From contig JBBTXV010000018.1 in NCBI GenBank assembly GCA_038062035.1, positions 5,621 to 23,331 on the forward strand: a stretch of DNA of 17,711 bases, given 5' to 3'. This DNA comes from Patescibacteria group bacterium (GTDB taxonomy: Bacteria; Patescibacteriota; Minisyncoccia; Minisyncoccales; 2-12-FULL-40-12). The translations under genes were made by a program, and so were the position numbers. Below are positions 2,841-17,711 of this stretch, piece after piece. Under the pieces are notes generated by a model, which had not been told where the DNA came from, ran no database searches, and worked only from the letters and a program-made list of their open reading frames with translations. Position 1 is the stretch's first letter. The number at the start of each line of letters is the position of its first letter.

Positions 2841-4406
2841 GTGCCTTCTAAAATATACTCAGCAGCCACTATTGGTCTTGACGCCCAAACTGTTGAAGTT
2901 GAAGTAGATTGCAGTTATGGCCTTCGTTCTTTCACTATTGTGGGATTACCAGATAAGGCCGTTGAAGAGTCAAAAGAAAGAGTAGCCAGCGCAATCAAAA
3001 GCATAAAACTTTCTCCGCCTCACCATCAACCTCGCCGCGTTTTAGTCAATTTGGCGCCAGCTGACCTCAAAAAAGAAGGTTCTCTTTACGATTTGCCAAT
3101 TGCTTTGGGCTTTCTTTTATCTTCAAAACAGATAAAATTTGATCCTGAAGGAAAAATCTTCTTGGGAGAATTAGCTTTAGATGGAAGATTAAGGCCAATT
3201 AAAGGGGCTTTATCTATTTCTCTTTTTGCCCAAAAAAAATTTAAGGAGATAATCTTGCCAGAAGAAAATTCAAAAGAGGCTGCCTTGGCTACTTTAAAGA
3301 ATTCTGGGAAAGAACAAATTGACTTTAAGGTAATTGGCATTGCAAATTTAAAAGAAGCGATTGATTATTTAGAAGGGAAAAAACAAATATCGCCTCAAAA
3401 AATAAATTCCGGGGAACTTTTTAAGGAAACCGACTTTTCTTTTGATTTAGGTTTCATCAAAGGCCAAGAATACGCTAAAAGAGCCCTGGAAATTACAGCA
3501 GCTGGCGGCCACAACCTCTTGATGTCAGGACCGCCTGGCGCTGGAAAAACCCTCCTATCTAAAGCCATTCCTTCTCTTTTACCCTCGCTTTCTTTTGAAG
3601 AATCTTTAGAGGTCACCAAAATTTATAGCATCGCTGGTCTTTTAGCCGAAGGGCAATCCTTGATCAATCTCAGGCCTTTTCGTAATCCTCATCATACTAC
3701 TTCAGAAGTAGCTTTAATTGGCGGAGGAAATCCTCCCAGGCCCGGCGAAATAACTCTGGCTCACCGGGGAATTCTTTTTTTGGACGAGTTTCCTGAATTT
3801 CATCGCGACGTCCTGGAAAGCCTGCGCCAACCCATTGAAGAAGGAAAAATCACCATTGCCAGAGCAAGACACTCTTTAACATTGCCAGCCAGGTTTACTT
3901 TAATCGCTGCCACTAATCCTTGCCCTTGCGGCTATCTTCAAGACTCGGAAAAAAATTGCACCTGTACCAGTTCCCAAGTCCAAATGTATAAAAGAAAATT
4001 ATCTGGCCCTTTAATGGACAGAATTGACCTTACCATTGAAGTTCCAAAATTAAAATACGAAAAATTGATAGCTTCAGGCGAAGAAAGTGAAAGCCAAAAA
4101 ATAAGATTAAGAGTAGAAAAATCAAGGGCAATCCAAGGAAAAAGATTTGGGAATGACAATACTGAAAGAAAAGATAAAATATTAGTGAATGCTGAAATGG
4201 GACTGCCCGAAATAAAAAAATACTGCCAAATAGACAGTAATTCTCAAGGCCTTTTAAAAAAGTACGTTGATTCAGGATTTCTTTCGGCTCGCGGCTACCA
4301 TCGAGTTTTAAAAGTAGCCAGAACTATTGCCGATTTGGATAATTCTGAAAACATCGGCTATCGCCATCTCTCAGAAGCATTAATCTATAGGATAAGAGAA
4401 GGATAA
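2841..4406 (+). CDS. comM: YifB/ComM-family Mg-chelatase-like AAA+ ATPase, GTG start
   Basis: There is an N-terminal Lon/ChlI-like domain (TIVGLPDKAVEESKERV). The Walker A motif is LLMSGPPGAGKTLL and the Walker B region is GILFLDEFPEF. The sensor region ATNPCPCGY with Cys pairs is typical of YifB/ComM. Confidence 0.9.
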   Translation: MPSKIYSAATIGLDAQTVEVEVDCSYGLRSFTIVGLPDKAVEESKERVASAIKSIKLSPPHHQPRRVLVNLAPADLKKEGSLYDLPIALGFLLSSKQIKFDPEGKIFLGELALDGRLRPIKGALSISLFAQKKFKEIILPEENSKEAALATLKNSGKEQIDFKVIGIANLKEAIDYLEGKKQISPQKINSGELFKETDFSFDLGFIKGQEYAKRALEITAAGGHNLLMSGPPGAGKTLLSKAIPSLLPSLSFEESLEVTKIYSIAGLLAEGQSLINLRPFRNPHHTTSEVALIGGGNPPRPGEITLAHRGILFLDEFPEFHRDVLESLRQPIEEGKITIARARHSLTLPARFTLIAATNPCPCGYLQDSEKNCTCTSSQVQMYKRKLSGPLMDRIDLTIEVPKLKYEKLIASGEESESQKIRLRVEKSRAIQGKRFGNDNTERKDKILVNAEMGLPEIKKYCQIDSNSQGLLKKYVDSGFLSARGYHRVLKVARTIADLDNSENIGYRHLSEALIYRIREG

Positions 4407-4407
4407 A

Positions 4408-5553
4408 TTATCTATTAAAAGGATTACTAGCTCCCTTGACTTCAAAATGAAGGTGGCAACCAGTCGTTTTTCCGGTATTTCCTATTGTTCCAATTTGCTC
4501 ACCTGCTGAAACTATTTGTCCTGACTGAACCAAAACGGATCCAAGATGATAATAAGCAGTAACCACTTGGTTAGGATGAATAACAGAAATGCTGTTGCCC
4601 GCTCCAGCATTCCAACCGCCAGCCTTAGCCCTTACGATTTCTCCCCCGGCTGCAGCAAAAACAGGCCTGCCGCAACTATTTCCTCCAGGATGAGTCAAAT
4701 CTACGGCATTATACCAATGCAAACCCTGGCTGATTGTATAAGGAGAAGCCAAAGGAAGAATAAAGTAACTGGAGGGAAGAGATATTTGGTTTGGCGAGGA
4801 AGGATTTACGAACTTTTGCTGCTTTTTTGAAGGCGGGGGCATTATGCCATCGGGAATAATTAAAATATCGCCAATATAAATATCGCCCTCGCTTTCCAAT
4901 TCGTTAAAAGCGACGATCTTGCCAATATCGCTTTTATAATTTTTAGCAATCTGGCTTAAAGTTTCTCCTTTTTTAACGTAGTGTAAAATTCCAGAAACCG
5001 GCAAAATAATTAAAGCTTGGCCAGATTTCAGTTTGGATTTTTTGGTCAGGTTATTAGCCCAAATTAAGGTTTCCAAAGAAATACCAAATTTTTCAGCCAC
5101 TGAGACCAAGGTATCGTCCTCTCTGAGGGTATACTCGATAACCTCTTTTCTCAGACTTGATTCAATCCCTTGTCCTGTCAAAACACCAAAGCTATGAGAC
5201 AAAACCATAACTGGGGAAGAAACAGCCATTATGCTGTCTTTTTGAACCAAAACAAGATCTGAAGAATTGTCAAAAGAATTAGGGCCTAAAACAGAAAGAG
5301 ATGAAGTCAAAACAGGCTGATTGATTCCGTCAAAAGAAGAATCTCCTGGCGCATTTGAAATTTGGGCCTGGAGATTTTTGGTTAAAAGAGAAGAATCTAA
5401 GTTTTCTGAAAAAACAATGGGCCTAAAAGCTAAAGCCAATAACGAAATCGCTAAAATTAACCCAAAAAGGAGAAAAGGGTCTTTGAGAGATCCCTTTTTT
5501 TGTTCGTAGATTCGGCGAATTACCTTTTTGAACTTGGCTCCAAAGGAGCTCAA
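4408..5553 (-). CDS. Membrane-anchored peptidoglycan hydrolase with two LysM domains and a C-terminal M23 (LytM-type) metallopeptidase; TTG start
   Basis: There is an N-terminal TM helix (FLLFGLILAISLLALAF). The two LysM-like segments are YTLREDDTLVSVAEKFGISLETLIWAN and HYVKKGETLSQIAKNYKSDIGKIVAFN. The M23 motifs are HWYNAVD...HPGG and GCHLHFEV. The start codon is TTG (plus-strand CAA at 5551-5553) and the first in-frame ATG lies >100 codons downstream. Confidence 0.85.
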   Translation of the reverse strand: MSSFGAKFKKVIRRIYEQKKGSLKDPFLLFGLILAISLLALAFRPIVFSENLDSSLLTKNLQAQISNAPGDSSFDGINQPVLTSSLSVLGPNSFDNSSDLVLVQKDSIMAVSSPVMVLSHSFGVLTGQGIESSLRKEVIEYTLREDDTLVSVAEKFGISLETLIWANNLTKKSKLKSGQALIILPVSGILHYVKKGETLSQIAKNYKSDIGKIVAFNELESEGDIYIGDILIIPDGIMPPPSKKQQKFVNPSSPNQISLPSSYFILPLASPYTISQGLHWYNAVDLTHPGGNSCGRPVFAAAGGEIVRAKAGGWNAGAGNSISVIHPNQVVTAYYHLGSVLVQSGQIVSAGEQIGTIGNTGKTTGCHLHFEVKGASNPFNR

Positions 5554-5791: not shown

Positions 5792-6628
5792 ATGGAACTT
5801 GCTTCGTTAAGAGAAATAAAAAAGATACTCCAAAAAAACCGAACTTCTCCCTCAAAGGGCTTGGGTCAGAATTTTCTAATCAGTCGAACAGCTCTAAGTC
5901 AGTTAATTGGGGCTGCCGAGCTAAAAAGAGAAGATACCGTCCTGGAAATTGGGCCGGGAATCGGAGTTTTAACCTTAGAATTAGCCAAAAGAGTAAAAAA
6001 ATTAATTGCCGTAGAAAAAGACCGAAAAATGTGCCAAATTCTAAAAGAAACTTTGGAAGCTTATAAAAATTTGGAAATTATCAACGCTGATATTTTAAAA
6101 TTTAACCATAATAACTATAAACTAATAACTAAAAACTATAAACTGGTAGCAAATCTTCCTTATTACATTACATCACCTGTAATAAGAAAGTTCTTGGAAG
6201 TTGAAAAACCGCCTGATTTAATGGTTTTAATCGTGCAAAAAGAAGTCGCTCAAAGAATTTGCGCCAAGCCGCCCAAGCTCAATCTTCTGGCGGTCTCCGT
6301 TCAATTGTATGCCAATCCTAAGATTATCTCTTTTGTTCCGAAAAATTCTTTCTGGCCCAAACCCAAGGTTGATGGAGCAATCATTCAAATTACGCAAATA
6401 AAAAAAGATGGAAAAATAGATAATCAAACATTTTTTAAAATCGTGAAAGCAGGATTTTCCCAGCCAAGAAAACAAATTATTAACAACTTGTCTAAAAGGT
6501 TAAAATTAAATAAGATGCAAGCCGAATCTTGGTTAAAATCTTGTAAAATCGAACCTGAACAAAGGGCTGAAACATTAAGCTTATCTGATTGGATTCTGTT
6601 AACAGAAAAATTTGCTATAATAAAATAA
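5792..6628 (+). CDS. rsmA: 16S rRNA (adenine1518/1519-N6)-dimethyltransferase RsmA/KsgA
   Basis: The N-terminal GQNFL motif is present. The SAM-binding motif is LEIGPGIGVLT, the NLPYYITSPVI motif is present, and the C-terminus is helical. The stop TAA at 6626-6628 overlaps the next ATG. Confidence 0.9.
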   Translation: MELASLREIKKILQKNRTSPSKGLGQNFLISRTALSQLIGAAELKREDTVLEIGPGIGVLTLELAKRVKKLIAVEKDRKMCQILKETLEAYKNLEIINADILKFNHNNYKLITKNYKLVANLPYYITSPVIRKFLEVEKPPDLMVLIVQKEVAQRICAKPPKLNLLAVSVQLYANPKIISFVPKNSFWPKPKVDGAIIQITQIKKDGKIDNQTFFKIVKAGFSQPRKQIINNLSKRLKLNKMQAESWLKSCKIEPEQRAETLSLSDWILLTEKFAIIK

Positions 6629-9123
6629 TGCCAAAGAGAGCAATAGGATTTTTTATAATTTTCTCTACGTTTTTTTTATTATTTTCTCTTTTTTCCTCTT
6701 TTGATTTCGCTTTTGCTCAAGGAAGACAATTGGAAATTGATTATCCAAATGTTCCCGGAGCCCCTACTCCAAAAACAACCGCAACCTTATTACCCGATTA
6801 CGTTAAATACGTCTTTAATTTCGGGATAATAATTTTTGGCTTAATAGTTTTGGGCGTTTTAGTCGCAGGGGGAATTAAATATCTTTTATCCACGGGGAAA
6901 CCGGAAGCATTACAAGAAGCCAAGAATCAAATACTTGCCGCTTTTTTGGGAATAATCGTTTTACTTAGCTCTTATTTAATTCTCACCACTATTAATCCCC
7001 AGTTGGTAATTTTTAACATACCGGGACTAACTCAAATTACGGTCTTTCGCTGCACAACCGATGAAAGTTGTAATGGGCGTTTCGGGTGTGAAACGCCGGG
7101 CACTTGTCGTTGCGACCTTGGAATCTGTAGGGCAAAACTGGAACCAAGGGAAACAACTTTAATAGCTTACGAAATCCCCGTAGGGCAACTGATAGAAAAG
7201 GGTGTTCAGAACGAAAACAATATTAACGAGGTAACCATTTTACTTAACGAATTTGAAAAATTTTTGAAAAAGGAAATTCCCGTTGACCCGCCTTCTTATA
7301 GATTATCTGATTTAAGCAAGCATCTTGTGGGCCTAACCGAAGATTGTAGCTGTGATGCCACGGAGGGTATTTGCGCCACTCCTGAAGCCGGAGCCGGAGG
7401 AGTGGGCTGCTTTGGAAATCCTTGTAAAGATTCCGAGGAAGAAATCCAAAAAGCCGTGGATATTACCTCTCAAAAAATAAGAGAGCTTCAAGATTTTAAA
7501 AATGAAGTAAAAAAACAGTTTCAAATTTTTCTGCAAGAAGGAGAAAAATTTTTAAAAGCTAACGAAGAAATAAATGAGTGTATAGAAAATGGGAAACTTT
7601 TAACCTTGGCTGATTATTTAGCTACATCTCAATTTTTTACTGAGCAAGGATGGAAGACGCAACTCAAATCAAACCCATATTTCCCTAGCTCTGGAGGAGA
7701 CGATCTAACATTTTATTGCATAAAAGGAGGAACAATTTTTGACGCGCCGAGAACCAGCTCATTCAATATACCTGAGATTCCGTTAGAGTTAAACCTTGTA
7801 ATTCCAACCGAACCCTTGTTAAGTCCAGAACCATTATCTTGTCCGGCAATTCTCCCGTTAGGCGAAATGCTAGATAATATAACAATTGAATCATACACAG
7901 CCAACGAAGATCTGGAAAGCCTAATCGTTCTTATTGACTTACTCTCTAAAGAACTCCAAAAATTACTTGATTCTGTTTCAAGCTGCAGCAGGAAAGACGC
8001 ATGCAGCATTACTTGCGCAAAGGGACCAAATCCCTGTTTTCCTGAAAGACCCTGCGCTCAACCATGGGGAGTGGGATATCCATGTTTTCGCTGCAACCCT
8101 CTTTCCCTTCCGCCTTGTTTACTCTGTGGACCAGGCATGGGTCTTTCTCCAAATATTCAAGCCAGAGGGGGCGGATCATCTTGTCAGGGCAATCCTGATG
8201 CGCCATACCACGGCTCCCCTTGCCCTCGTGATGATATAGAAAAAACTTTACAAAAGATTAAACTCCTTGATAATGAAATTATTGAACTAATCCAAGAAAC
8301 AAAAAATGGATTTAATGCGAAGCCGTACATAATAGAGACTCCTAAGGAAAATATAAACTTGCTCCAAGGAATTAGAGGGTCAACGGCATTCTGTACCAGC
8401 GATGATATTAATAACCCGGATATTTTTTTGCTTAATTGCCTAGATGCTATAGGAAATGAAGGGCCGGACGGCAACATAATTGGCGACTGCGATCCTCAAA
8501 GCTTTTTTTGCTGTACCGCTGATAAAACAAAAGCGGGTTCAATAAGGCAATCTTTTCCAAGAGAAACACAAGAATTCAACTATTATACTGGCCCTCGTCT
8601 TGAAAACCCTTTTTCTCCTGCTGAAATTAGAAATAATGTTCCTTATTTTAGCCAAAAGGACCCTCTTTGGGCGGGAAGGTCTTATGGGTGCGGAGGGACA
8701 ACAATAAAATCCTCTGGTTGCGGCCCTACTTCTATGGCTATGGTGTTACGACATTACGGCAAAAATGTCGATCCTGTAATCACTGCTGAATGGTCATTAA
8801 GAAACAACTTTCGAGTTTGTAATGCCGGTACTGCCTGGAGTTTTTTCAACAGTATAGCTAAATCTTACGGTTTAAATGGGTGCAAACCTTTAAGCGTGGC
8901 GAATATTGACAATCTAATAGCTAAACTTTCCGATGGACCGATAATCGTTAGCGGCCGAGGAAATCCTCCGTATTCAAAAGGAGGACATTATATTGTTTTA
9001 ACCGGGGCAGATGAAAATTATGTTTATATAAATGATCCGGCACGACCTAAGTTAAAAAGAAAGCTAATTGACGAATTTAGAATAGCTGGGAGAGCAAGAT
9101 TCGCTTGCCAAGTTAAACAATAG
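6628..9123 (+). CDS. Secreted/membrane chimeric protein: Sec signal peptide, a VirB2/TrbC-type pilin-like TM hairpin, a ~520-aa Cys-rich ectodomain and a C-terminal C39-like (papain-fold) cysteine peptidase domain
   Basis: I prefer the start at ATG 6628 (MPKRAIGFFIIFSTFFLLFSLFSSFDFAFA|QG is a textbook signal peptide) over the tracked 6589 start, which overlaps rsmA. A conserved motif LEIDYPNVPGAPTPKTTATLLPDYVKYVF precedes two TM helices separated by STGKPEALQEAKNQ. Multiple Cys clusters follow. The C-terminus contains YFSQKDPLWAG...GCGPTSMAM...GGHYIVLTG. Confidence 0.75.
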   Translation: MPKRAIGFFIIFSTFFLLFSLFSSFDFAFAQGRQLEIDYPNVPGAPTPKTTATLLPDYVKYVFNFGIIIFGLIVLGVLVAGGIKYLLSTGKPEALQEAKNQILAAFLGIIVLLSSYLILTTINPQLVIFNIPGLTQITVFRCTTDESCNGRFGCETPGTCRCDLGICRAKLEPRETTLIAYEIPVGQLIEKGVQNENNINEVTILLNEFEKFLKKEIPVDPPSYRLSDLSKHLVGLTEDCSCDATEGICATPEAGAGGVGCFGNPCKDSEEEIQKAVDITSQKIRELQDFKNEVKKQFQIFLQEGEKFLKANEEINECIENGKLLTLADYLATSQFFTEQGWKTQLKSNPYFPSSGGDDLTFYCIKGGTIFDAPRTSSFNIPEIPLELNLVIPTEPLLSPEPLSCPAILPLGEMLDNITIESYTANEDLESLIVLIDLLSKELQKLLDSVSSCSRKDACSITCAKGPNPCFPERPCAQPWGVGYPCFRCNPLSLPPCLLCGPGMGLSPNIQARGGGSSCQGNPDAPYHGSPCPRDDIEKTLQKIKLLDNEIIELIQETKNGFNAKPYIIETPKENINLLQGIRGSTAFCTSDDINNPDIFLLNCLDAIGNEGPDGNIIGDCDPQSFFCCTADKTKAGSIRQSFPRETQEFNYYTGPRLENPFSPAEIRNNVPYFSQKDPLWAGRSYGCGGTTIKSSGCGPTSMAMVLRHYGKNVDPVITAEWSLRNNFRVCNAGTAWSFFNSIAKSYGLNGCKPLSVANIDNLIAKLSDGPIIVSGRGNPPYSKGGHYIVLTGADENYVYINDPARPKLKRKLIDEFRIAGRARFACQVKQ
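6731..7013 (+). other. VirB2/TrbC-like pilin hairpin module (conserved pre-helix motif plus two TM helices ending in TINPQL) within the 6628-9123 CDS
   Basis: The topology is signal peptide, short conserved motif, TM1, ~14-aa polar loop, TM2. It is paralogous to 12410-12700. Confidence 0.45.
8630..9075 (+). other. C39-like / papain-fold cysteine peptidase domain (Peptidase_C39_2-like) at the C-terminus of the 6628-9123 CDS
   Basis: The motifs are NVPYFSQKDPLWAGRSYGCGGTTIKSSGCGPTSMAMVLRHYG and later GGHYIVLTGADENYVYINDP. This is a putative Cys nucleophile followed by a His, in the order and spacing expected of YvpB-type C39-like domains. Confidence 0.55.
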
Positions 9124-9144
9124 GAATATTTTTAAAGTCCGGTT

Positions 9145-12100
9145 ATGTTAAGAGATCTAAAAAAAAGTTTAATATTAAAATATCTAAAAAAAATTAAGTT
9201 TCTAAATACTTATTTTTTAGCTTTGGGAATAATAACAACGATTTTCTTAATTTCTGGTTTCGCTGGAATAAGCCCTCTTTCTGACAAAGTTAAAGTGTTG
9301 GGCCAAGGAATACCTTTGTTTTATTTCCCCAATTTTCCAATAAGATTGGCTTTTTTAGCTAATGAGATCACGACAACCAACGAAGAACTGATTATTCGTA
9401 GTGATGAGCTATCAAAATTCGTCAACGCTTTCGACTGCAAATACGCTCAATCGCAATGCGTGCAGACAACAAAGAAATTGCCAGGAGGAGGACAGCAATC
9501 CATTTGCGAGCCAGGACCAATAAAAGTATTTGGAAGGGTTAATCCTATACCACAAGGCACCACCAATGAAAAAGAAGTTCACTCCGAAGAAATACAATCT
9601 GCAATAAATGATTTAAATATTAAACTTGCCTCCTTGCAAACAACTTTAAGAGGGGAAGTCGAAATTGGCATAGAAAAACAGTTGAAAACTTTAAGGCCTG
9701 AAGACGCTCAAATTATCAGAGACAATTTAGAAAAACTTGATCGGTTAATGTCCGAAATGAGAAATCTAACTGAAAGAAACTCTTCACTACCTAATAAATG
9801 TTCAGTTCAAAGATGCACCCCGGAATGCGAATTAGGCCAAACTTTTACTGCTGAAGCCTGTGTTGGAGCTTCCGGCGAACAAAAACCAATAGAGCTTAAA
9901 TTTAAAGTCGGCGTAGGATTAGATAATTTGAATCTCGGCAGGTTGGGCATAGAAAACATCAATCTTGGCTTACCAGACAAGGTTAATATACCAACTCCCC
10001 AACTTCCCTCTCTCAGTTTCCGTATTCCAAATGCCACCTTAAACTGCCCGACCCAAAGACAACAGATCGTTTTTCATCCATCCACTCCTATCCTACCAGA
10101 CTTGCCAACCATAACTCTGAGTTGTCCTCAATATCAAAGCTATTCATCCTATCAATGCTCTTCTCCTCCCTCGCAAGGAGAAGAAGGGTTTATTGAATTT
10201 GAATGGTGGAATAAAACTTTTGAGCATTTGTCAGGAGAATGTCTTAAAGTTGCTAACAGCGACAGTAAAAGATTAAAAAATGAACAAGGGCAAATTGAAT
10301 ATCAAAAAGCAGTAGAGGGCTGCATGAGCCCAGAGAAGGTTGTCCCGACCACTATTAATGAGTGTGAAGCAAAATGGGTAAGAAAATGTTCTTTCCTTGA
10401 CTGTCGCTGGGAACTCTCCAATCCCCGAGAACAAGAAATCTGTGGTCAGATTGGTCGTTCACCAGACAAAACTCAAAAAGCGGTTAAATGGTGCCAGACA
10501 TTATACCAAGATGAAGGACAAACCCCTCCGGCTACCTGCTCTTCTGAAACAATTCTAACAACTCATCAAAAGTGCAACGAGATAAGAAATTCAGGTAGAG
10601 AAAACGTTCCGCTTTCTTGTAAACTTTTACCGTTATTCGCTGGACAATTAGAAGATCTGCCAGAAGGAACAGTTATAGGTCAAGGAGGAAATTGTCCATC
10701 TCAAAATATTGGGGATTTTCCTATACCAATGGCTGGTTGCGCAATAACCGCTCCATCTATCCCTAAAATAACTTTTCCAACAATAATTATCCCTGACATC
10801 CATCTTCCAACTTTCAGCTTACCTCCTCTCTTTCGGGTAAAATTACCAAATCTTATTTTTGAGGACTTAAATATAGGCGAAATCAACCTTTGCAACTTAG
10901 ACGACTGCAGCGCCCAATTTCCTTACTTAACTTTTAAACCTCCTTCTTTAAAAATCCCTCAAGTAAATGTTCCGCCTGTTACCCTGGAGATTCCAGGCGC
11001 CTCTCCAATAGATATCCAAATAGAACCAATTAATTTCCAGACCTTAAATTTTAACATTCCCCAGTTAATTAACTTGGGATCTTTGGTAACGCCCGAATTA
11101 AAGATACCGGAAATTCCCCTGCCCCAGCCAAGAATTCAATTCTCTTTTCTCGGAATTAATATTGATTTGCTAAATCTACTTCTTGGCCTTTTCAAAACGC
11201 CCCTCAATCTTAATCAGTGCGTGGCTTTGGACGCTAAGCTTGGAGTGCTCGATATTGTTTATCCTGACAAATATTTCCCTTGGCCAGCCTATCCCAAACC
11301 AGGAGAACTCAAATTTTGCAAAAAAGCAAGAGAATGGTGTCAAAGACAAAAAGGATCAATCCAGGAAATAACAACAAAAGCCGCTAGAATTCAAGAGCAA
11401 GTTAATAGCGTTTTTCAGAGCGAAATCCAAACAAAGCTTGATAAGACAGCTGATAGATTAAATCAAAAAATAACCAGAGAAGTTGAAAGAGAACTTGAGA
11501 AAGTTAAAAACGAAATAAGCAAGCAATTGCTCCAACATTTAGGGAAATATGCTCCTCAAAATGTTATACCTCCTTCAGCGCCGGTGCCTGGCGTCTGGGA
11601 AGTTAAAGGAGAACTTCCCTGTCAAGGAATACCGCCTTTAACCGTTTATATGCCTCCGGATTTACAAACAATTAGCATTGATCCTCAATCAATAAATGAA
11701 TTCCTTGAAAAAGAATTTGGAGAAACCTGGCCAACAGAAATTACTATCCGCTGGCCAAAAGATCTAAAAAAGTTCAAGCTGTCCTGTAACGAAAGTAATT
11801 GTGAGGCCTGTGAACAAAGAGGAAATGACGCTTGCCGAGGATTGTTAAGATGGGCGGACTGCCCGACCCTTGCCAATTGGGAAGATTACGCAAAATGCAA
11901 GTTGGATTACAGAATAAACAGCTGTAAAAACGAGTGCAAAAACTGCTTAAGCTATGACCTGCCGTCAGTTCCTTTGTGCGGATTAAGTTACAAAAAAGAA
12001 TTTACTAGAAGACTTCCTGGCCATCAACTATCTGTAACGACGCCAAGAGATCTTCTTTCGGGTTTAAGAAATGTTCGCGAGTGTATTAGTGGGCCACCCA

Positions 12101-12219
12101 AAGGAGGAAATCCTTGCCAGACAGAAGCAGGTCAAATCCAGGCTAATCTTAATAAGATTAAAAGATTATCGGAGGAGATGAAAAACGCTTCCCAAGAGAT
12201 AACTAATTTATTATACTAA
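9145..12219 (+). CDS. Large (1024 aa) signal-anchored, cysteine- and proline-rich extracytoplasmic protein with a coiled-coil segment; a putative surface or adhesin-like component
   Basis: There is an N-terminal TM anchor (FLALGIITTIFLISGFAGI) and >40 Cys. A coiled-coil stretch (EIQSAINDLNIKLASLQTTLRGEVEIGIEKQLKTL) is present. A long run of periodic xIPxxxLPxL motifs (IPKITFPTIIIPDIHLPTFSLPPLF...KIPEIPLPQPRIQF) shares the IPEIPL motif with the preceding CDS. Spacing to its neighbours is tight. Confidence 0.75.
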   Translation: MLRDLKKSLILKYLKKIKFLNTYFLALGIITTIFLISGFAGISPLSDKVKVLGQGIPLFYFPNFPIRLAFLANEITTTNEELIIRSDELSKFVNAFDCKYAQSQCVQTTKKLPGGGQQSICEPGPIKVFGRVNPIPQGTTNEKEVHSEEIQSAINDLNIKLASLQTTLRGEVEIGIEKQLKTLRPEDAQIIRDNLEKLDRLMSEMRNLTERNSSLPNKCSVQRCTPECELGQTFTAEACVGASGEQKPIELKFKVGVGLDNLNLGRLGIENINLGLPDKVNIPTPQLPSLSFRIPNATLNCPTQRQQIVFHPSTPILPDLPTITLSCPQYQSYSSYQCSSPPSQGEEGFIEFEWWNKTFEHLSGECLKVANSDSKRLKNEQGQIEYQKAVEGCMSPEKVVPTTINECEAKWVRKCSFLDCRWELSNPREQEICGQIGRSPDKTQKAVKWCQTLYQDEGQTPPATCSSETILTTHQKCNEIRNSGRENVPLSCKLLPLFAGQLEDLPEGTVIGQGGNCPSQNIGDFPIPMAGCAITAPSIPKITFPTIIIPDIHLPTFSLPPLFRVKLPNLIFEDLNIGEINLCNLDDCSAQFPYLTFKPPSLKIPQVNVPPVTLEIPGASPIDIQIEPINFQTLNFNIPQLINLGSLVTPELKIPEIPLPQPRIQFSFLGINIDLLNLLLGLFKTPLNLNQCVALDAKLGVLDIVYPDKYFPWPAYPKPGELKFCKKAREWCQRQKGSIQEITTKAARIQEQVNSVFQSEIQTKLDKTADRLNQKITREVERELEKVKNEISKQLLQHLGKYAPQNVIPPSAPVPGVWEVKGELPCQGIPPLTVYMPPDLQTISIDPQSINEFLEKEFGETWPTEITIRWPKDLKKFKLSCNESNCEACEQRGNDACRGLLRWADCPTLANWEDYAKCKLDYRINSCKNECKNCLSYDLPSVPLCGLSYKKEFTRRLPGHQLSVTTPRDLLSGLRNVRECISGPPKGGNPCQTEAGQIQANLNKIKRLSEEMKNASQEITNLLY

Positions 12220-12226
12220 GGTAATT

Positions 12227-13693
12227 ATGAAAGGTACGAGGTTTTTATTCGTTTTATTAATTATTGCTTTCTTGTTTTTTTTATCGGGTAATTTTGTCTC
12301 AGCTCAACAAGTATGCGATAAAGATCAAGATTGTCCAGGAGGTCAAAGCTGTATATCTGATCCTTGCAATACCGACCCTAACGCCCCAAAAATATGCGGT
12401 AAAGGCAGGGCTTTGGAAATCTGCTATCCTCAAATACCAGGAGTCGCTACACCAAAAACAACCGGTGAGCCCTTACCAGATTACATAAATTATATTTTCC
12501 GCTTCGCAATTGCTGCGATAGGCTTTGTTGTCCTTGGAGCTATGGTTTATGCCGGCGTCAGCTATTTTCTTTCATTCAACAACGCAGCGAAACTTCAAGA
12601 TGCCAAAGAAGGAATTTCTGCCGCTTTTTTGGGTGGCGTTATTTTGTTGGCGGCTTTTCTAATTTTTAATACGATAAATCCGCAATTAACTATTCTTGGA
12701 CCTCCAAAAGCTGATCTTCTGTGGGGGACAACTCAACCCGGAATATATATTTGTACTTATCCCGTAGATACAGGTTATTTAACTCAAATTAACCAAGACC
12801 TCAAAATCCAACCAACCTTCGGAGATCTAGGAGCAATTATTGATGCTTATACCAATGAAACGGATCCAAAAAGACAGGTTGAAGCAACTCAGGCATTACA
12901 AAGAATAATGTACAAGGACTCTTCGAATCTTTGCCAATTGCTCTTGAGCTCCACAAATCTCAGAACCCCGTTGCTGCCAAATTATACAATGTTCTCTATC
13001 CCAAAAGTATTCCCTGACCCGAATGATCCGCAAAAGCGCGTAGCAGAATTTCTTGAAGCGGTAATTTTGCATGAAAAAGATGATTTTAAGGGGGAACAAA
13101 AATTATACCCAATACCAAAAACGGTTGGAAGAAAACTTGTGCTCTTTGATCAAATCGACGGATTTAAAGCGGGCAACGGCTTAAATGACATCGGGGGAAG
13201 GGCTAAATCAATTACTCGTATAAAAAAGGCGGATGTGCCAGAAGCAAGCCCTCCAGGGATAACCTTATTCTCCTGCCCCAACTGGAATCAAAGCAAGGGC
13301 TTATGCCCAAAAGGATTGACTGGAACGCCTATCCCCCTTATTGATGCAAGTTTTGCCACTGACGGCGCTGACATTAAACTCTGGGGGAAAAGCGAACTTA
13401 AATCGGGCCAAGAATCTTTAGCTGAAAATGTCCGCTCTATTAGAATCACGCCATTGGGCAGTTTTCTTGCTATAGTATATGAAAAAGACGATGCAAAAGG
13501 AAATGGGGGAATTTTATATTCTGACGCTGCTGATATTAGGGGAAATAAATTGGGGCTTAAAATGTGTGGAACAAACTGTCCTTCGGGAATACTTCAATCC
13601 ACCCCTTTCTTCTTTATTCTTGACAGGATAAGAGGTATTGATTGTACCCCCTGTATAAATTCAATGACAGTTATTAAGGGAATAAAATTATGA
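12227..13693 (+). CDS. Secreted/membrane protein: signal peptide, a Cys-rich N-terminal knot, a VirB2/TrbC-like pilin hairpin (a paralog of the module in 6628-9123) and a ~330-aa ectodomain
   Basis: The signal peptide is MKGTRFLFVLLIIAFLFFLSGNFVSA|QQ, followed by CDKDQDCPGGQSCISDPC. The segment LEICYPQIPGVATPKTTGEPLPDYINYIF...AAFLGGVILLAAFLIFNTINPQL aligns with the 6731-7013 module. The stop overlaps the next start (ATGA at 13690-13693). Confidence 0.8.
   Translation: MKGTRFLFVLLIIAFLFFLSGNFVSAQQVCDKDQDCPGGQSCISDPCNTDPNAPKICGKGRALEICYPQIPGVATPKTTGEPLPDYINYIFRFAIAAIGFVVLGAMVYAGVSYFLSFNNAAKLQDAKEGISAAFLGGVILLAAFLIFNTINPQLTILGPPKADLLWGTTQPGIYICTYPVDTGYLTQINQDLKIQPTFGDLGAIIDAYTNETDPKRQVEATQALQRIMYKDSSNLCQLLLSSTNLRTPLLPNYTMFSIPKVFPDPNDPQKRVAEFLEAVILHEKDDFKGEQKLYPIPKTVGRKLVLFDQIDGFKAGNGLNDIGGRAKSITRIKKADVPEASPPGITLFSCPNWNQSKGLCPKGLTGTPIPLIDASFATDGADIKLWGKSELKSGQESLAENVRSIRITPLGSFLAIVYEKDDAKGNGGILYSDAADIRGNKLGLKMCGTNCPSGILQSTPFFFILDRIRGIDCTPCINSMTVIKGIKL
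12410..12700 (+). other. Second copy of the pilin-like hairpin module
   Basis: The shared pattern with the first copy is LEIxYPxxPGxxTPKTTxxxLPDYxxYxFxF - TM1 - loop - AAFLGxxxLLxxxLIxxTINPQL. Confidence 0.45.
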
Positions 13694-15144
13694 TTCAATT
13701 CTTGGGAGATGCCATTTTAGGTGCCATCTTTCTTGTGCCGGCGATTTTAACCGCTCTACTTATAAGTCTTAGCCAGGCTGCAGCTTTTTTAATGGGGATT
13801 ATCTTAGATTGGATTATTAGCCCTAACTTTACCTCTTATAGCTACACCAAACCCTGCAATCCCCCTGACAGAATAGTCGGAGATTGTAATCCAGTTGTCG
13901 GAATAGGATTAAATATCACTCAAGGCTTTGTAAACTTACTCTTAGTAGTAGTTCTGGTTTATGTTGCTATTTCCATAGCTTTAAGATTAGGAGGGGAAAC
14001 TAATGCGAAAAAGATATTCGTCAATCTAATCATCGTTGCTTTATTGGTGAATTTTGCTCCGGTTCTCATTGGCTTGATCGTGGATGCTACTAATATTGTG
14101 ATGAACTTTTTCTTTTCTTCTATCCAAGGGGGAGCAGCTGGAATATTAAATCAGGGCGCAACAATTTTTGATACGGTAAAAGGCGCTGTACTAGCCTCGG
14201 GAGCAGGATTCAAAGATAGACTGGGATTATTAGCAGCTGGAGCTTTCACAGTAAGCCTCAACCTCTTTATTGCTTTTATCTTTTTGATTTTTGCCGGGCT
14301 CTTCGTTTTCAGATATATTGCCATCTGGATCTTAGTAATCTTATCCCCAATCGCCCTTGTCCTTTGGGTCTTACCCGGCAAGCCAAGACAGTTCTGGAAT
14401 ATGTGGTGGAATAATCTTATCCAATGGTCAATTATTGGAATCCCAATTTCTTTCTTTCTATATTTAGCGCTTGCAAGTTTCAGCGCCATTAATAGATCTT
14501 TCCTAGGACGAATAGAACAATCTTCGGGTATTTTTCCGGCCGCTGATTTAACCTTCGTTGACCGACTCATTCCCTATGCTGTAGTAAGTGCTTTTCTTGG
14601 TATGGGATTTTTAGTGAGCTTGGCAACCTCAGCCATGGGCGCTAACGCCATTATTGCCGGAGGTATGGCAAGCGGTAAATTTACACGCGATAGAGCTTGG
14701 GGGGGAACAAAAAGGGCTAGTAGGGCCACATGGCGAGGAACTAGAAACGCAGGAAGCCAAGTTATGGGTCGTTATGCGGCGGGAAGACAAGCCGGCCAAG
14801 GAAGAATCGGAGCTTTTGGTCGAGCAGTAGGGGGAGCAACTGGAGCAGGAGTACGCCAAGTAGGAAGCACAGTAGCAGGCTGGGCAAGCGTCAGAAGCCA
14901 ATATAGAACAGCGAGACAAGCTGGCGTTGGAAAAATACGGTCAGTATTTATGACAGCACCAGCCAGATCAGCTGCTGGTGCTGCTAAGGGTGTAACTTCT
15001 TTCCTTGGCGGTATGGCAGGCGCATGGGTACAAGGAGCTACCAAGAAGAAGGGTAAAGCGAAAGGAAAAGCATTCTGTAGTACTTGTGGAGCTACTGCTC
15101 CATCGGGATCGAATTTCTGTCAAAGTTGTGGATCGCCAATTTAA
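13690..15144 (+). CDS. Polytopic VirB6/TrbL-like membrane protein with a Gly/Ala/Arg-rich low-complexity tail and a C-terminal zinc ribbon
   Basis: There are ~8 hydrophobic helices across aa 1-330, including YIAIWILVILSPIALVLWVLPG. One extracytoplasmic loop contains a Cys pair (KPCNPPDRIVGDCNP). The tail (aa ~330-455) is rich in G/A/R/T with repeated RxAG and GAxG. The final 22 aa read CSTCGATAPSGSNFCQSCG (CxxC-x10-CxxC). The GC-rich DNA at 14640-15060 matches the tail. Confidence 0.75.
   Translation: MIQFLGDAILGAIFLVPAILTALLISLSQAAAFLMGIILDWIISPNFTSYSYTKPCNPPDRIVGDCNPVVGIGLNITQGFVNLLLVVVLVYVAISIALRLGGETNAKKIFVNLIIVALLVNFAPVLIGLIVDATNIVMNFFFSSIQGGAAGILNQGATIFDTVKGAVLASGAGFKDRLGLLAAGAFTVSLNLFIAFIFLIFAGLFVFRYIAIWILVILSPIALVLWVLPGKPRQFWNMWWNNLIQWSIIGIPISFFLYLALASFSAINRSFLGRIEQSSGIFPAADLTFVDRLIPYAVVSAFLGMGFLVSLATSAMGANAIIAGGMASGKFTRDRAWGGTKRASRATWRGTRNAGSQVMGRYAAGRQAGQGRIGAFGRAVGGATGAGVRQVGSTVAGWASVRSQYRTARQAGVGKIRSVFMTAPARSAAGAAKGVTSFLGGMAGAWVQGATKKKGKAKGKAFCSTCGATAPSGSNFCQSCGSPI
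15073..15141 (+). other. C-terminal zinc-ribbon (CxxC-x10-CxxC) of the VirB6-like protein
   Basis: FCSTCGATAPSGSNFCQSCGSPI is a canonical short zinc-ribbon spacing. Confidence 0.6.
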
Positions 15145-15170: not shown

Positions 15171-15605
15171 ATGATGGAAGATTTTAAATCTGAGGTTGAA
15201 AAAATAAAAGAGCAGTACCCGGAATTTTTTGAAAAGGTTGATCCCGAACTCTTGAAGTTTATTACCTCTGAAAAATTTTTATTTGATGTCGCTCAAATCT
15301 GTTTGGATAATGGAATAACAGACGAGGAGCAAACGGAAAAAATTACTTATAGGGTCGCCTTGGCTTTATTCGGAGAGGTGCCCAAAGAAAATTTAGCCCA
15401 GATTCTTGAACTCGGAGCCGGATTGGATCCTCAAACTGCTAAGGCAATGCATCTTGAGTTCAACCGACTTATTTTTTCTCAACTGAAAGAACCGAAAAAA
15501 AGACCGGAGGTTAAAATGGAATTTTCTCCGGGCTTATTAGAAGAGACCGAAATAGAAAGCGAAAAACCTAAAAGAAAAGATATCTATCACGAGCAGATAC
15601 AATAA
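15171..15605 (+). CDS. Small acidic hypothetical protein (144 aa), probably cytoplasmic
   Basis: It is an intact ORF with a clean start and stop, no TM helix and no motif I recognise. A hairpin terminator follows it. Confidence 0.55.
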   Translation: MMEDFKSEVEKIKEQYPEFFEKVDPELLKFITSEKFLFDVAQICLDNGITDEEQTEKITYRVALALFGEVPKENLAQILELGAGLDPQTAKAMHLEFNRLIFSQLKEPKKRPEVKMEFSPGLLEETEIESEKPKRKDIYHEQIQ

Positions 15606-15619
15606 ACAAAAATAAAGAA

Positions 15620-15645
15620 GGAACGGTAAAACCGTTCCTTTTTTC
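15620..15645. terminator. Bidirectional rho-independent terminator between convergent genes
   Basis: The hairpin is GGAACGG-TAAAA-CCGTTCC (7-bp perfect stem) followed by TTTTTT on the plus strand. The minus strand reads the same stem followed by TTCTTTATTTTT. Confidence 0.65.
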
Positions 15646-15672
15646 AATGAATTCAATGAATTCAACGAATCA
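15642..15672. repeat. Short tandem repeat, about 3 copies of TTCAATGAA / TTCAACGAA
   Basis: The sequence ttcaatgaattcaatgaattcaacgaatcaacc was read directly. It overlaps the stop and last codons of the minus-strand SPFH gene. Confidence 0.4.
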
Positions 15673-16954
15673 ACCAGTAAATCATTGAACCAACCATGGA
15701 AAATATCGCCAGAAGACCTAAGGCCTTCTTACCCAAACTAACATCCTCTTCCGGGTTCGGTATTATCGCCGGGTATCTTGACTTTACTTTTCTTACTGGC
15801 GGAACTTGATCTTCAAGATGCTCTTGCGAGCTTGCTCCTCCTCCTGAAGACTCGTCTTTCTTCTCCGCCGCCTCGGATGATTTTTGCTCTGGCGTCACTC
15901 CTTCACCAACCGGTGGCATTCCTTTATAAGCAGCAATGATCTTCAAGATACCAGCGAGGACTCCGCCATCGCCTCCTTCAGCTCCCGGAGTTTCGATCCT
16001 CAGATAGGATTTTGACTCCATCGAAAGCTTACTCATTGTGCTATCTATTATAACTTTATGCCTCCGGTAGAACTCTTCGGGGCTTGCTTGAAGCTCCTTC
16101 TTAACTTGCTCTGGGGATTTACCTGCACTAGCCACAGATGCAATAACTGTCCCCATTATTTCTTCGGCCCTACCAGCCGCTATTAACTCTTGCTTTCTTT
16201 TAGCTGAAGCCGCCCTCTGATAATCTTCGGACAGATCAACCTCTTGAATCTCAATGCCCTTATCTGCTAATTTCATCCCCCACTTTTGTAAGGTTTCTTC
16301 AATCACCTTAGCTCCAGTTAAAAGACCCTCTTGGTTTTCTGCCCAAAGAGATGCGCCTTTAAGCTTAAGAAGCGTATCAAGGTCACGACTAGTGACAATT
16401 GAACGCATCTCTGCCTTTATTTTGGCGAGAACATCTTCAATTGGGGTCGGAGGAGCAATAAATAAAAAAGAATACGGATTGTCGATCCTTAACGTGATTA
16501 AAACCAAAACGTCCACTGGGATTCTTTCTGGCGGTGCGGTTTCAACAGCCGTAAGCTTAATCGCGTAAACCGCTGATTTCAAGAGAACGTGCCTCATCCT
16601 TAGTTCCTCATGAAACTCAGGGTTTGTATCACCGCTTTCTCTTAAACGAATATCGGTCCAGCGGTTCTTGTACTGGTGGATCGCATGAAATGGCCAAATG
16701 CCATACAAATACAATCCTCCAACAATACGCAAGCCCGTCCAAACTTCGTCTCTCTCCCTACGATCGGGGTCTTCTTCGTCAGTTAAAATCTTCCAACTAT
16801 GATCCATCCAGTGCTTTTCCCACGAAAAAAGGATCTTTTTGAACTTTCCGAAAGACACTACTGCCTTTGCGGTTCCTTCGTTAACCGTGGTAAAACATCT
16901 AATAAACCAGAAAAAAAACGCTAACGATATTCCGAGCGTTATCAGCCATTCCAT
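15662..16954 (-). CDS. SPFH / band-7 (stomatin-prohibitin-flotillin-HflK/C) domain membrane protein with both N- and C-terminal TM segments
   Basis: The N-terminal TM is followed by VNEGTAKAVVSFGKF, which is the typical SPFH domain entry. A long helical Ala/Glu/Lys-rich segment follows (YQRAASAKRKQELIAAGRAEE). The C-terminal hydrophobic segment is GLLAIFSMVGSMIYWLI. The RBS is GAGGTG, 7 nt before the ATG. Confidence 0.75.
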   Translation of the reverse strand: MEWLITLGISLAFFFWFIRCFTTVNEGTAKAVVSFGKFKKILFSWEKHWMDHSWKILTDEEDPDRRERDEVWTGLRIVGGLYLYGIWPFHAIHQYKNRWTDIRLRESGDTNPEFHEELRMRHVLLKSAVYAIKLTAVETAPPERIPVDVLVLITLRIDNPYSFLFIAPPTPIEDVLAKIKAEMRSIVTSRDLDTLLKLKGASLWAENQEGLLTGAKVIEETLQKWGMKLADKGIEIQEVDLSEDYQRAASAKRKQELIAAGRAEEIMGTVIASVASAGKSPEQVKKELQASPEEFYRRHKVIIDSTMSKLSMESKSYLRIETPGAEGGDGGVLAGILKIIAAYKGMPPVGEGVTPEQKSSEAAEKKDESSGGGASSQEHLEDQVPPVRKVKSRYPAIIPNPEEDVSLGKKALGLLAIFSMVGSMIYWLIR

Positions 16955-16957
16955 TTC

Positions 16958-17031
16958 TTTTCACCTCTTCTGTAGATTTTCAGTTCTCAAGGAACTATTA
17001 AAAATATATCATCTATTGAAATCTTTGTCAA
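16958..17031 (-). promoter_or_regulatory. Promoter/leader cassette copy 1 for the SPFH gene, read on the minus strand: -35 TTGACA, 17-bp spacer, extended -10 TGaTATATT, a short leader with a 5-bp hairpin, SD GAGGTG
   Basis: The minus-strand sequence is TTGACAaagatttcaatagaTGaTATATTtttaatAGTTCcttgaGAACTgaaaatctacagaaGAGGTGaaaagaaATG. Copy 2 at 17371-17444 is identical. Confidence 0.6.
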
Positions 17032-17107
17032 GCTTAGAAAATAAAGAGCGCGCTCGAAACGAAACGCGCTATTAACTTTCCAATTTGTATCACCTCTTAT
17101 TTTAAAA

Positions 17108-17368
17108 CTAATCTCTCTGGACCACACAAATGTCGTAATCAATTTTTCTCTCCTTACCATCTATCACAGTTTGAATCAATTCGGTCGAAGGATTTGCATC
17201 GCGCAATAAAATCTTCTCCGTTTTGCATCTTAGACAAATAAGGCGAATAAATAGACTGTCTTCAGTGATCTTTATTCTTCCCCCTATGCATTCTCGATGA
17301 AACATCTCTAAATCTTTAAAGCTAAATTCTTCATCTTTACTCTTTTTCCTCACTTCGATCGTGAACAT
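17108..17368 (-). CDS. Small hypothetical protein (~86 aa from the ATG at 17366-17368; the track's 89-aa version starts at a GTG inside the SD) with 5 Cys including a CLRC pair
   Basis: GAGGTG lies 6 nt upstream of the ATG (MFTIEV...), so the GTG at 17375-17377 is more likely part of the RBS. There is no TM helix. It is driven by the duplicated promoter cassette. Confidence 0.5.
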   Translation of the reverse strand: MFTIEVRKKSKDEEFSFKDLEMFHRECIGGRIKITEDSLFIRLICLRCKTEKILLRDANPSTELIQTVIDGKERKIDYDICVVQRD

Positions 17369-17370
17369 CT

Positions 17371-17444
17371 TTTTCACCTCTTCTGTAGATTTTCAGTTCT
17401 CAAGGAACTATTAAAAATATATCATCTATTGAAATCTTTGTCAA
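17371..17444 (-). promoter_or_regulatory. Promoter/leader cassette copy 2, identical to 16958-17031, driving the small Cys-containing protein
   Basis: There is a 74/74 identity with copy 1 at an offset of 413 bp. The -35/-10/hairpin/SD layout is the same. Confidence 0.6.
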
Positions 17445-17521: not shown

Positions 17522-17711
17522 ATGAATTTTCAGATTCCCCAATTTATTGAACAAGAAGCAAAAATTTTAGGGCCTTTTACTTTCAAACAAACTCTTTGGG
17601 TAGTCGGGGTCGGGATAATTATATTTTTTCTTTATTATTCTTTAGCCAAAACAAACCCTGTTCTTTTTATCATTATAACGGTATTTTTGGCTGGGACTGG
17701 CTCAGCTTTTG
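17522..17711 (+). CDS. PrgI-family (VirB3-like) small membrane protein, 3'-partial; it runs off the window
   Basis: MNFQIPQFIEQEAKILGPFTFKQTLWVVGVGIIIFFLYYSLAKTNPVLFIIITVFLAGTG matches the conserved PrgI N-terminus (a short amphipathic start, GPFTFKQ, then two TM helices). In monoderm conjugation systems PrgI precedes the VirB4-like ATPase. Confidence 0.55.
   Translation, partial: MNFQIPQFIEQEAKILGPFTFKQTLWVVGVGIIIFFLYYSLAKTNPVLFIIITVFLAGTGSAF

Follow-up and report, generated by a model that had tools for sequence, protein, structure and literature searches.

Pilin modules head large cysteine-rich surface proteins in a probable chromosomal type IV secretion locus of a Patescibacterium

We analyzed a stretch of 17,711 nucleotides from contig JBBTXV010000018.1 (positions 5,621 to 23,331, forward strand; assembly GCA_038062035.1), referred to below as the window, in which four open reading frames, ORF1 to ORF4, follow the ksgA/rsmA gene. 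With a probability of roughly 70%, this region represents the membrane and surface half of a chromosomal, origin-proximal Patescibacterial type IV secretion system (T4SS), in which pilin modules hold large ectodomains at a VirB6 machine. The T4SS reading is supported because the pilin homology, the VirB6 fold and the synteny with VirB4 are all favourable; gene order, homologies, folds, the swapping of a peptidase head and the VirB4 synteny are the observations from which we start. The source organism is a Patescibacterium of the Paceibacteria/Nealsonbacteria neighbourhood, and its T4SS is related to the mating-pair formation class MPF-FATA. Patescibacterial T4SSs, their VirB2-like pilins and their position at ksgA and oriC are already known (Wang 2023; Quinonero-Coronel 2025), whereas multi-domain "pilins", above all a pilin-anchored peptidase with a swapped head, were found in none of the published accounts that we consulted. 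The main features are as follows (positions in the window, all on the + strand).

6628–9123, +: ORF1, 831 aa; signal peptide, T4SS_pilin module, Cys-rich region, C39-type head
ORF1 aa 1–30: signal peptide, with predicted cleavage between AFA and Q
6718–7032, +: ORF1 pilin module, aa 31–135; LEIxYP..PG motif, two-helix hairpin, TINPQL end
7033–8607, +: ORF1 Cys-rich middle region, aa ~136–660
8635–9042, +: ORF1 peptidase head, Peptidase_C39_2, aa 670–805
9145–12219, +: ORF2, 1024 aa; one N-terminal membrane segment, Cys-rich ectodomain
12227–13693, +: ORF3, 488 aa; signal peptide, T4SS_pilin module, C-terminal globular domain
ORF3 parts: signal peptide aa 1–26; 5-Cys segment aa 27–58; T4SS_pilin module aa 59–160; globular domain aa ~166–488
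13690–15144, +: ORF4, 484 aa; VirB6/TrbL-like polytopic membrane protein

ORF1 and ORF3 begin with a conserved pilin module

An earlier sequence-only reading of this DNA had described two proteins with a signal peptide, a two-helix hairpin and a nearly identical motif, and these correspond to ORF1 and ORF3. The motif ahead of the helices reads LEIDYPNVPGAPTPKTTATLLPDYVKYVFNF in ORF1 and LEICYPQIPGVATPKTTGEPLPDYINYIFRF in ORF3, and the two modules of ~105 aa align across 120 aa with 48% identity (E 2e-30), far beyond chance. Hydropathy analysis placed two hydrophobic helices at aa 57–90 and 100–129 of ORF1 and at aa 86–117 and 127–152 of ORF3, in each case after an N-terminal signal-like segment. 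The AlphaFold2 model of ORF3 (predicted local distance difference test score, pLDDT, 87) also contains a two-helix hairpin, comprising helices 85–115 and 120–149. Compared with PDB structures, the ORF3 hairpin retrieved generic helical bundles only, with no established similarity to solved VirB2/TraA pilins.

The homology to VirB2-like pilins that had been proposed for these modules is borne out at the family level. Taking the curated cut-off of 26.6 bits for PF18895 (Pfam T4SS_pilin), the orthologs P0122, P0123 and P0134 (62–67% identity) score above it with 26.7, 29.1 and 31.1 bits, respectively, and 98 of 101 of the best module relatives match this family at E ≤ 1e-3. For comparison between species, a scan with an ORF4-family profile of one genome per GTDB species yielded 80 loci from Nealsonbacteria, Wildermuthbacteria, Staskawiczbacteria, Gribaldobacteria, Minisyncoccales and unclassified bins; the TrbC/VirB2 family PF04956 is also matched by 9 of the 100 module proteins encoded there. 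The window modules additionally show a weak match to NF045849, a pilin-like family of a Mycoplasma integrative and conjugative element (ICE). A HMMER search with the ORF1 module against 1.84e9 cluster representatives returned 14,148 matches at E ≤ 1e-3, including 2,092 at E ≤ 1e-10. Among the best 150 of these 14,148 relatives, ~16 positions are at least 90% conserved (E36, Y39, P40, Y58, Y61, F63, G71, G82, Y85, S88, G90, G108, S115, N123, P124 and L126). This degree of conservation exceeds the need of a passive membrane anchor and therefore argues for specific contacts of the module.

Small single-domain pilins have precursors of about 100–150 aa, a size that the 831- and 488-aa proteins with their added folded domains far exceed, and the pilin-like units indeed stand at the N-termini of long proteins, as the sequence-only reading had it. 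The best 150 module relatives have a median length of 455 aa, with 9 of 150 not exceeding 200 aa, and the 80 species-representative loci encode 109 complete module proteins with a median of 418 aa (9 of ≤200 aa, 16 of >700 aa), both samples being biased towards relatives of the ORF1 module and the ORF4 VirB6 family. In 105 of these 109 proteins, the start of the module falls among residues 1–80. Other pilin-module proteins carry SLT, SLT_3, M23, NlpC/P60, C39_2, C10, Mx1, dockerin or crystallin domains, the recurring partners being cell-wall hydrolases. Two to six tandem modules were found in single polypeptides of 460–890 aa (P0154–P0159, P0167, P0171, P0175), one of which matches PF18895 with an E-value of 2.9e-71 for the protein as a whole, and some long module proteins are already called "pilin" by NCBI. 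The long module-bearing architecture is real, widespread and not peculiar to this contig.

These data also bear on an alternative in which the modules are true polymerising pilins, forming a VirB2-type filament on VirB6 with the ectodomains on its surface or tip, and thus an armed pilus breaching the host envelope. The module does belong to the PF18895/VirB2 family and is strongly conserved, and pilin-only relatives of just 133–180 aa, which occur beside the long proteins, are possible building blocks of a shaft. In F- and T-pilus structures both pilin termini lie on the outer filament face, making a C-terminal graft topologically possible. A pilus has also been speculated on for Patescibacterial T4SSs (PMC12857230), but none of these systems is known to build one. 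Moreover, the window encodes no short pilin, only the 831- and 488-aa forms, and ectodomains of 330–700 aa on each subunit would be sterically hard to pack, leaving a filament of this kind conceivable but doubtful.

The head of ORF1 is a peptidase domain exchanged between orthologs

Adjacent to its module, ORF1 contains a Cys-rich middle region and a carboxy-terminal head. The head matches PF13529 (E 3.4e-22, 80 bits; cut-off 24) and PF03412 (E 4e-10, 40 bits; cut-off 22), in both cases above the cut-off, and the NCBI name of the identical protein is 'C39 family peptidase [Patescibacteria group bacterium]'. This C39 domain was missing from the sequence-only reading, as was the finding that ORF2 has a single membrane segment and no pilin module. 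Both catalytic residues, Cys698 (GCGPTS) and His787 (GHYIVL), are in place; they are conserved within the C39 subgroup and align with those of 6mpz_A, the PCAT double-glycine protease domain, which is the closest solved relative (E 7e-4); 3k8u_A was also matched. The head is therefore akin to the C39 domains of PCAT and ComA in both its family matches and its aligned catalytic Cys and His. It differs from them in lacking an ABC transporter fusion, in its predicted extracytoplasmic location and in being interchangeable with peptidoglycan peptidases in orthologs.

ORF1 orthologs of 765–992 aa retain the module and the Cys-rich middle region. The latter is 37–85% identical to close orthologs up to aa ~640, with 19 Cys kept in at least 80% of 11 orthologs. 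Past this point, identity falls abruptly to about 10%, and the C39_2 head is replaced by NlpC/P60 in P0123, P0124, P0127 and P0134 and by a Peptidase_M74 murein endopeptidase in P0125 (= L007) and P0128. Because ortholog identity collapses past aa ~640 and NlpC/P60 or M74 stands there instead, we regard the ORF1 head as a modular peptidase. Taking membrane anchoring, SLT and/or CHAP/NlpC-P60 domains and a gene within the T4SS cluster as the marks of monoderm VirB1-type hydrolases, ORF1 itself carries C39_2 and its orthologs carry NlpC/P60 or M74.

The nature of the head raises the alternative that the module is a carrier or leader and the ectodomain a cargo, cut off after TINPQL, possibly by the C39 domain of ORF1, and released onto or into the host. 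C-terminal processing is known for the T4SS pilins RP4 TrbC and Ti VirB2. In the present family, hardly any variation occurs at N123, P124 and L126 of the module end, short relatives stop a few residues past the module-end motif, and the C39 head resembles leader-cleaving peptidases. No evident double-glycine site follows the module, however, and the ortholog heads are wall hydrolases (NlpC/P60, M74) rather than processing enzymes, and we consider release of a cargo improbable.

ORF3 and ORF2 carry further ectodomains

The C-terminal globular domain of ORF3 is predicted, based on its model, to contain a beta-gamma-crystallin, double Greek-key fold. The ORF3 family profile reached 3hzb_A at no better than E 0.59, no Pfam Crystall match was obtained, and the canonical Ca-binding N/D-N/D-x-x-S/T-S motif appears degenerate by eye (..ENVRSIRI..).

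ORF2 consists of a single membrane segment (aa 17–46) and a Cys-rich ectodomain of ~980 aa, without a pilin module. Its gene separates the orthologs of ORF1 and ORF3 in each of the 11 nearest loci, outside which no relatives of its ectodomain were detectable, and 19 of its 40 Cys are kept in at least 80% of orthologs. A comparison of ORF1 with ORF2 for paralogy yielded no significant similarity, the best E-value being 0.026 over 52 aa of coiled coil.

Overall, ORF1, ORF2 and ORF3 contain 35, 40 and 14 Cys, respectively, in agreement with the Cys richness noted earlier, and about half of these residues recur in 80% or more of the orthologs found in other species. From the signal peptides, the high Cys content and the many conserved Cys, we infer that the ectodomains of ORF1–ORF3 are extracytoplasmic.

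ORF4 resembles VirB6

ORF4, which overlaps the end of ORF3, contains at least six hydrophobic segments and can be divided into a core (aa 1–~340), a tail that is disordered and presumably cytoplasmic, and a zinc ribbon at the C-terminus (aa 462–483). The proposal that the last of the four genes encodes a VirB6/TrbL-like polytopic protein is supported by a Foldseek comparison of its model with VirB6 (probability 0.94, template modelling score 0.52), and the model superposes on TrwI/VirB6. At the level of sequence, PF04610 is matched at E ≤ 0.01 by 8 of 34 ORF4 homologs, all under the cut-off of 25.9 bits, and ORF4 shows a weak match to NF045890.

The ORF4 family ranges from ~480 to ~1250 aa, with variable C-terminal tails, some bearing double zinc ribbons; 'extended' VirB6 homologs of 1166–1251 aa occur among L072, L075, L082 and L087. 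Long VirB4 open reading frames were also observed, in L068 (14164–17952, 1262 aa) and in L086 (14671–18028, at least 1119 aa).

PrgI and VirB4 follow in related genomes

The window ends within a gene for which similarity to PrgI/VirB3 had been suggested. Its 63-aa fragment scores 26.8 bits against PF12666. The final 600 nt of the window recur without a difference on L004, a contig of 3.4 kb that reaches 285 nt beyond the window end and completes a PrgI of 138 aa scoring 32.8 bits, above the cut-off of 27. On L004 the open reading frame after PrgI begins MANLATQQFLEIDQIRE, the start of a TrsD/TraC-like protein.

The closest fully syntenic relative, L007, is a 67-kb contig from the Joint Genome Institute (JGI) with an ORF4 of 47% identity. 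Its gene order is ComM, M23/LysM, KsgA, the orthologs of ORF1–ORF4, ORF5, Band_7, PrgI, a TraC/TrsD-like protein and VirB4, followed by a 115-aa membrane protein (p115), Jag, YidC, RnpA and rpmH, the origin region. The TraC/TrsD-like protein has 213 aa and begins MAHLSTQQFLEIEDVKDG, and VirB4, of 593 aa, matches P-loop_TraG (E 6e-29), AAA_10 and DUF87. Among the 80 loci, 46 have at least 8 kb of upstream sequence, and in 39 of these KsgA precedes the VirB6-like gene; of the 41 with enough downstream sequence, 27 have VirB4, 26 a TrsD-like gene and 24 PrgI within 10 kb. In L065–L077 and others, pilin-module genes lie directly downstream of VirB4 and p115. Together, these homologies and the presence of VirB4 in L007 and 27 of 41 loci corroborate the resemblance to the monoderm conjugation/T4SS core that the sequence-only reading had pointed out.

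A membrane protein of ~115–140 aa directly after VirB4 was seen in L007 (16218–16565), with equivalents in L013, L027, L065, L067 and L076; it had no Pfam match and is a candidate conserved T4SS subunit. L017, L063, L069 and many 'binchicken' loci are titled Woesearchaeota/Pacearchaeota archaeon or 'uncultured Candidatus Saccharibacteria', yet have a Paceibacteria-type locus. As these mislabelled-looking loci hold ksgA, VirB6-like, PrgI and VirB4 genes, the record-level taxonomic labels look unreliable.

Gene neighbourhood and transcription unit

The genes flanking ORF1–ORF4 within the window are the following.

5792–6628, +: ksgA/rsmA, 16S rRNA dimethyltransferase (PF00398, E 2.9e-60)
15171–15605, +: ORF5, 144 aa, soluble acidic protein; conserved locus companion
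15662–16954, –: SPFH/Band_7 membrane protein (PF01145, 28.1 bits)
17108–17377, –: 89-aa open reading frame
17522–17711, +: PrgI (VirB3-like), first 63 codons, cut at the window and contig end

All genes from ksgA through ORF5 are co-directional. As described earlier, the genes after rsmA are tightly coupled: the ksgA stop and the ORF1 start have one base in common (TAATG, 6626–6630), and ORF3 and ORF4 overlap by 4 nt (ATGA), while the gaps between ORF1 and ORF2 and between ORF2 and ORF3 are 21 and 7 nt. The strongest terminator-like hairpins border the unit, at 15618–15640, directly 3' of ORF5, and at 17047–17070. Four weaker terminator-like matches lie within ORF1–ORF3, and the region contains eight such matches in total, fewer than the mean of 12.9 in shuffled sequence. 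The 1-nt and 4-nt overlaps, the short gaps and the flanking hairpins suggest co-expression of the unit. No Rfam family reached its gathering score within the window.

ORF5 has no family match in Pfam or NCBIfam. Its homologs occur in 26 of 80 loci, directly upstream of PrgI in L065, L070, L077, L081 and L082 among others, and it may be an unrecognised T4SS component. The Band_7 gene, a frequent convergent neighbour downstream of the VirB6-like gene, is shared by 27 of the 80 loci. A direct repeat of 74 nt with identical copies (16958–17031 and 17371–17444; spacing 413 nt) places one copy immediately upstream, on the minus strand, of each of the Band_7 gene and the 89-aa open reading frame, and each copy contains a near-consensus extended -10 promoter (TTGACA-17-TATATT, 11/12) and a ribosome-binding site. 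The 89-aa gene, which is not in the syntenic L007 and has a homolog in L015, looks like a small insertion along with a duplicated promoter and leader.

Upstream of ksgA, the window encodes an M23/LysM peptidase (4408–5553, –), a ComM-like Mg-chelatase-family ATPase (2841–4406, +) and a DksA/TraR zinc-finger protein (2469–2828, +), and the order ComM, M23/LysM, KsgA is kept in L007. M23/LysM proteins are among the VirB1-like candidates of the 2025 survey (PMC12102498). A protein of 786 aa (105–2465, +) comprises long Glu/Lys-rich coiled-coil-like repeats, a single membrane segment with a run of prolines after it, and a globular C-terminal part, and gave no Pfam match.

Identical proteins are present on the 24.9-kb contig CAYIAO010000005.1 of GCA_964361475.1 and in Hainich groundwater assemblies, labelled "Patescibacteria group bacterium" by NCBI, in accordance with the Candidate Phyla Radiation (CPR) type of organism that had been suggested from composition. 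A phage origin was rejected, six proteins being without any PHROG match.

Weighing of the T4SS assignment

Several findings weigh against a T4SS with ectodomains held by pilin modules. The window modules themselves, with 24.4 (ORF1) and 18.5 bits (ORF3), remain below the PF18895 cut-off. For ORF4, the Foldseek E-values exceed 0.05, the family profile searched against PDB sequences reached TrwI only at E 2.1, and ORF4 itself gave no PF04610 match. The ORF1 middle region matched nothing in Pfam or among PDB sequences and has no recognisable fold; likewise, ORF2 had no significant match in Pfam, NCBIfam, PHROG or PDB and no recognisable fold. By sequence, the C39 head is closest to double-glycine leader peptidases, and its substrate could be a peptide, not peptidoglycan. 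The ATPases for which the sequence-only reading had suggested looking downstream were found in part: VirB4 is present in syntenic relatives but not on contig CAYIAO010000005.1, which stops inside PrgI, and no type IV coupling protein (T4CP) was seen in any retrieved flank. Finally, in L008/L010 (Nealsonbacteria GCA_026396115.1), where the four-gene cluster with ORF5 and Band_7 is located after rpsP and before trmD, no PrgI or VirB4 lies within 10 kb, and the linkage is thus not obligatory. We take the surface module to be separable from the ATPase module on these grounds.

The isolated cluster of L008/L010 would also fit a T4SS-independent complex for remodelling of envelope or wall, for instance during growth or division, with PF18895 as a mere anchor and the adjacency to T4SS genes as a by-product of clustering at the origin. 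The M23/LysM peptidase and Band_7 neighbours and the many housekeeping genes crowded in the region point in the same direction. Yet the predicted fold of ORF4, a gene in translational coupling with ORF3, is that of VirB6, pilin-module genes directly follow VirB4/p115 in other clades (L065–L077), and VirB4 is linked in 27 of 41 loci. Since, in addition, S. epibionticum requires its pilin arrays as well as the T4SS (PMC10633639), a role in remodelling alone seems rather unlikely.

The relationship of PrgI, VirB6 and VirB4 to monoderm conjugation systems, together with weak matches to NF045849 and pLS20_p028, could alternatively mean that the locus serves DNA transfer by a plasmid or an integrated conjugative element. 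None of the window ORFs matched a relaxase-like family, and neither the window nor L007 contains a relaxase, T4CP, integrase or repeat boundaries, while in many species the genes lie among ksgA, comM, yidC, rnpA and rpmH. Relaxases are, moreover, present in only about 100 of thousands of genomes in published surveys (PMC12102498), rendering DNA transfer by such an element very improbable. We rejected a mobile-element origin on the missing relaxase, T4CP and integrase and the housekeeping synteny.

Discussion

In the arrangement that we favour, in which pilin modules hold ectodomains at a VirB6 machine, ORF4 would form the VirB6 platform in the cytoplasmic membrane, with PrgI (VirB3), a TrsD-like protein and the VirB4 ATPase encoded just downstream and powering the system. 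ORF1 and ORF3 would be exported by Sec, lose their signal peptides and insert via the VirB2-like hairpin, presumably with both ends outside. Rather than being a generic anchor, the hairpin may mediate specific docking to, or assembly with, the VirB6/VirB4 machine, and would bear a large ectodomain probably stabilised by disulfides. In ORF1 this ectodomain would comprise the Cys-rich region and a head that evolution has swapped among C39-like, NlpC/P60 and M74/LAS folds, and in ORF3 a domain containing the putative beta-gamma-crystallin. Wall cutting is the job of VirB1-type proteins in monoderm T4SSs, a role that ORF1 could fill on its own wall, the host wall or both, provided that its substrate is peptidoglycan. 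Where the cell touches its host, ORF3 and the giant ORF2 might contribute structure or adhesion at the surface.

The general system has been described before. In 2020, a T4SS region of Saccharibacteria was reported to comprise VirB4, VirB6 and VirB2 as well as small proteins secreted via Sec and arranged in an array (PMC7427843), and the T4SS and predicted pilins were essential for epibiotic growth in Southlakia epibionticum (SEML1_0006–0019), the sole species tested (Wang 2023, PMC10633639). The survey by Quinonero-Coronel 2025 described a Patescibacteria VirB4 clade, PrgI, TrsD, VirB6, VirB2-like pilins identified via PF18895/PF04956 and pilin arrays, with relaxases absent, KsgA, DnaA and RnpA as neighbours and KsgA as a frequent neighbour of virB4 (PMC12102498). 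A 2025 review repeats this picture, with six VirB2-like pilins, and speculates on a pilus (PMC12857230), and a 2026 preprint mentions only that PF18895 dominates freshwater-specific structure clusters. In text searches of published descriptions of Patescibacterial T4SSs and of the survey supplements, we found no mention of a peptidase or any other large domain in fusion with a pilin module. The suggestion that such a fusion is not known from T4SSs therefore stands for the accounts searched; the system itself, by contrast, is published, and long module proteins are abundant in databases.

With the chromosomal T4SSs of Patescibacteria, the present locus has in common the VirB6-like, PrgI/VirB3, TrsD-like and, in its syntenic relatives, VirB4 proteins, VirB2-like pilin modules related to PF18895, and a chromosomal location by ksgA and the origin without a relaxase. 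The described pilins, however, are arrays of small proteins ('small hypothetical proteins', PMC7427843), whereas the modules here head proteins of 831 and 488 aa with a peptidase or crystallin domain, and a Cys-rich protein of 1024 aa lies between them. The MPF-FATA systems (pCF10 with PrgH/PrgI/PrgJ/PrgK; pLS20) likewise contain a PrgI family member, a VirB6-type polytopic protein and VirB4 with P-loop_TraG/AAA_10, the latter found here in the relative, as well as membrane-anchored wall hydrolases in the cluster, the PrgK-type VirB1 analogues (PMC12102498), to which the putative hydrolase encoded here may be comparable. Unlike the present locus, the pCF10 and pLS20 systems are not known to have VirB2-like pilins, are located on mobile elements with a relaxase and T4CP, and use hydrolases with a plain transmembrane anchor and SLT/CHAP domains.

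The signal peptide, the two-helix hairpin and the PF04956 matches of 9 of 100 relatives are shared with the VirB2/TrbC/TraA pilins (PF04956). Those classical pilins have ~70–120 aa when mature and are not known to carry extra domains, and in contrast to classical VirB2 systems, the cell here is monoderm and thus without an outer-membrane core complex. Of the R388 VirB6–VirB5 stalk, only the TrwI/VirB6 part has a likely counterpart, on which modelled ORF4 superposes; no VirB5 homolog was found here. A bulky C-terminal domain on a pilin is known in concept from the type IV pilins PilB and PilC of Streptococcus sanguinis, which carry grafted vWA or lectin modules; their type IVa pilin family and type IV pilus machinery are unrelated to the modules described here.

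Published accounts treat VirB2-like components as small pilins, whereas in the Paceibacteria-type loci sampled here a typical module protein has 400–900 aa and bears domains for wall degradation or binding, with the catalytic head exchanged among unrelated peptidase folds even between close relatives. Counts of PF18895 proteins as "pilins" therefore lump functionally diverse surface proteins. The proteins of this locus provide concrete candidates for the opening of the wall at the contact site and for what such "pilins" do. We tentatively raise the broader possibility that VirB2-like modules are a general display or delivery scaffold, with thousands of different grafted ectodomains, forming an enzyme-armed filament or contact organelle that is assembled by VirB6/VirB4 and cuts the host wall. 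If so, the displayed ectodomains would include peptidoglycan peptidases, lytic transglycosylases, crystallin- and dockerin-type binders and tandem pilin repeats, and the swapping of heads would track host wall chemistry.

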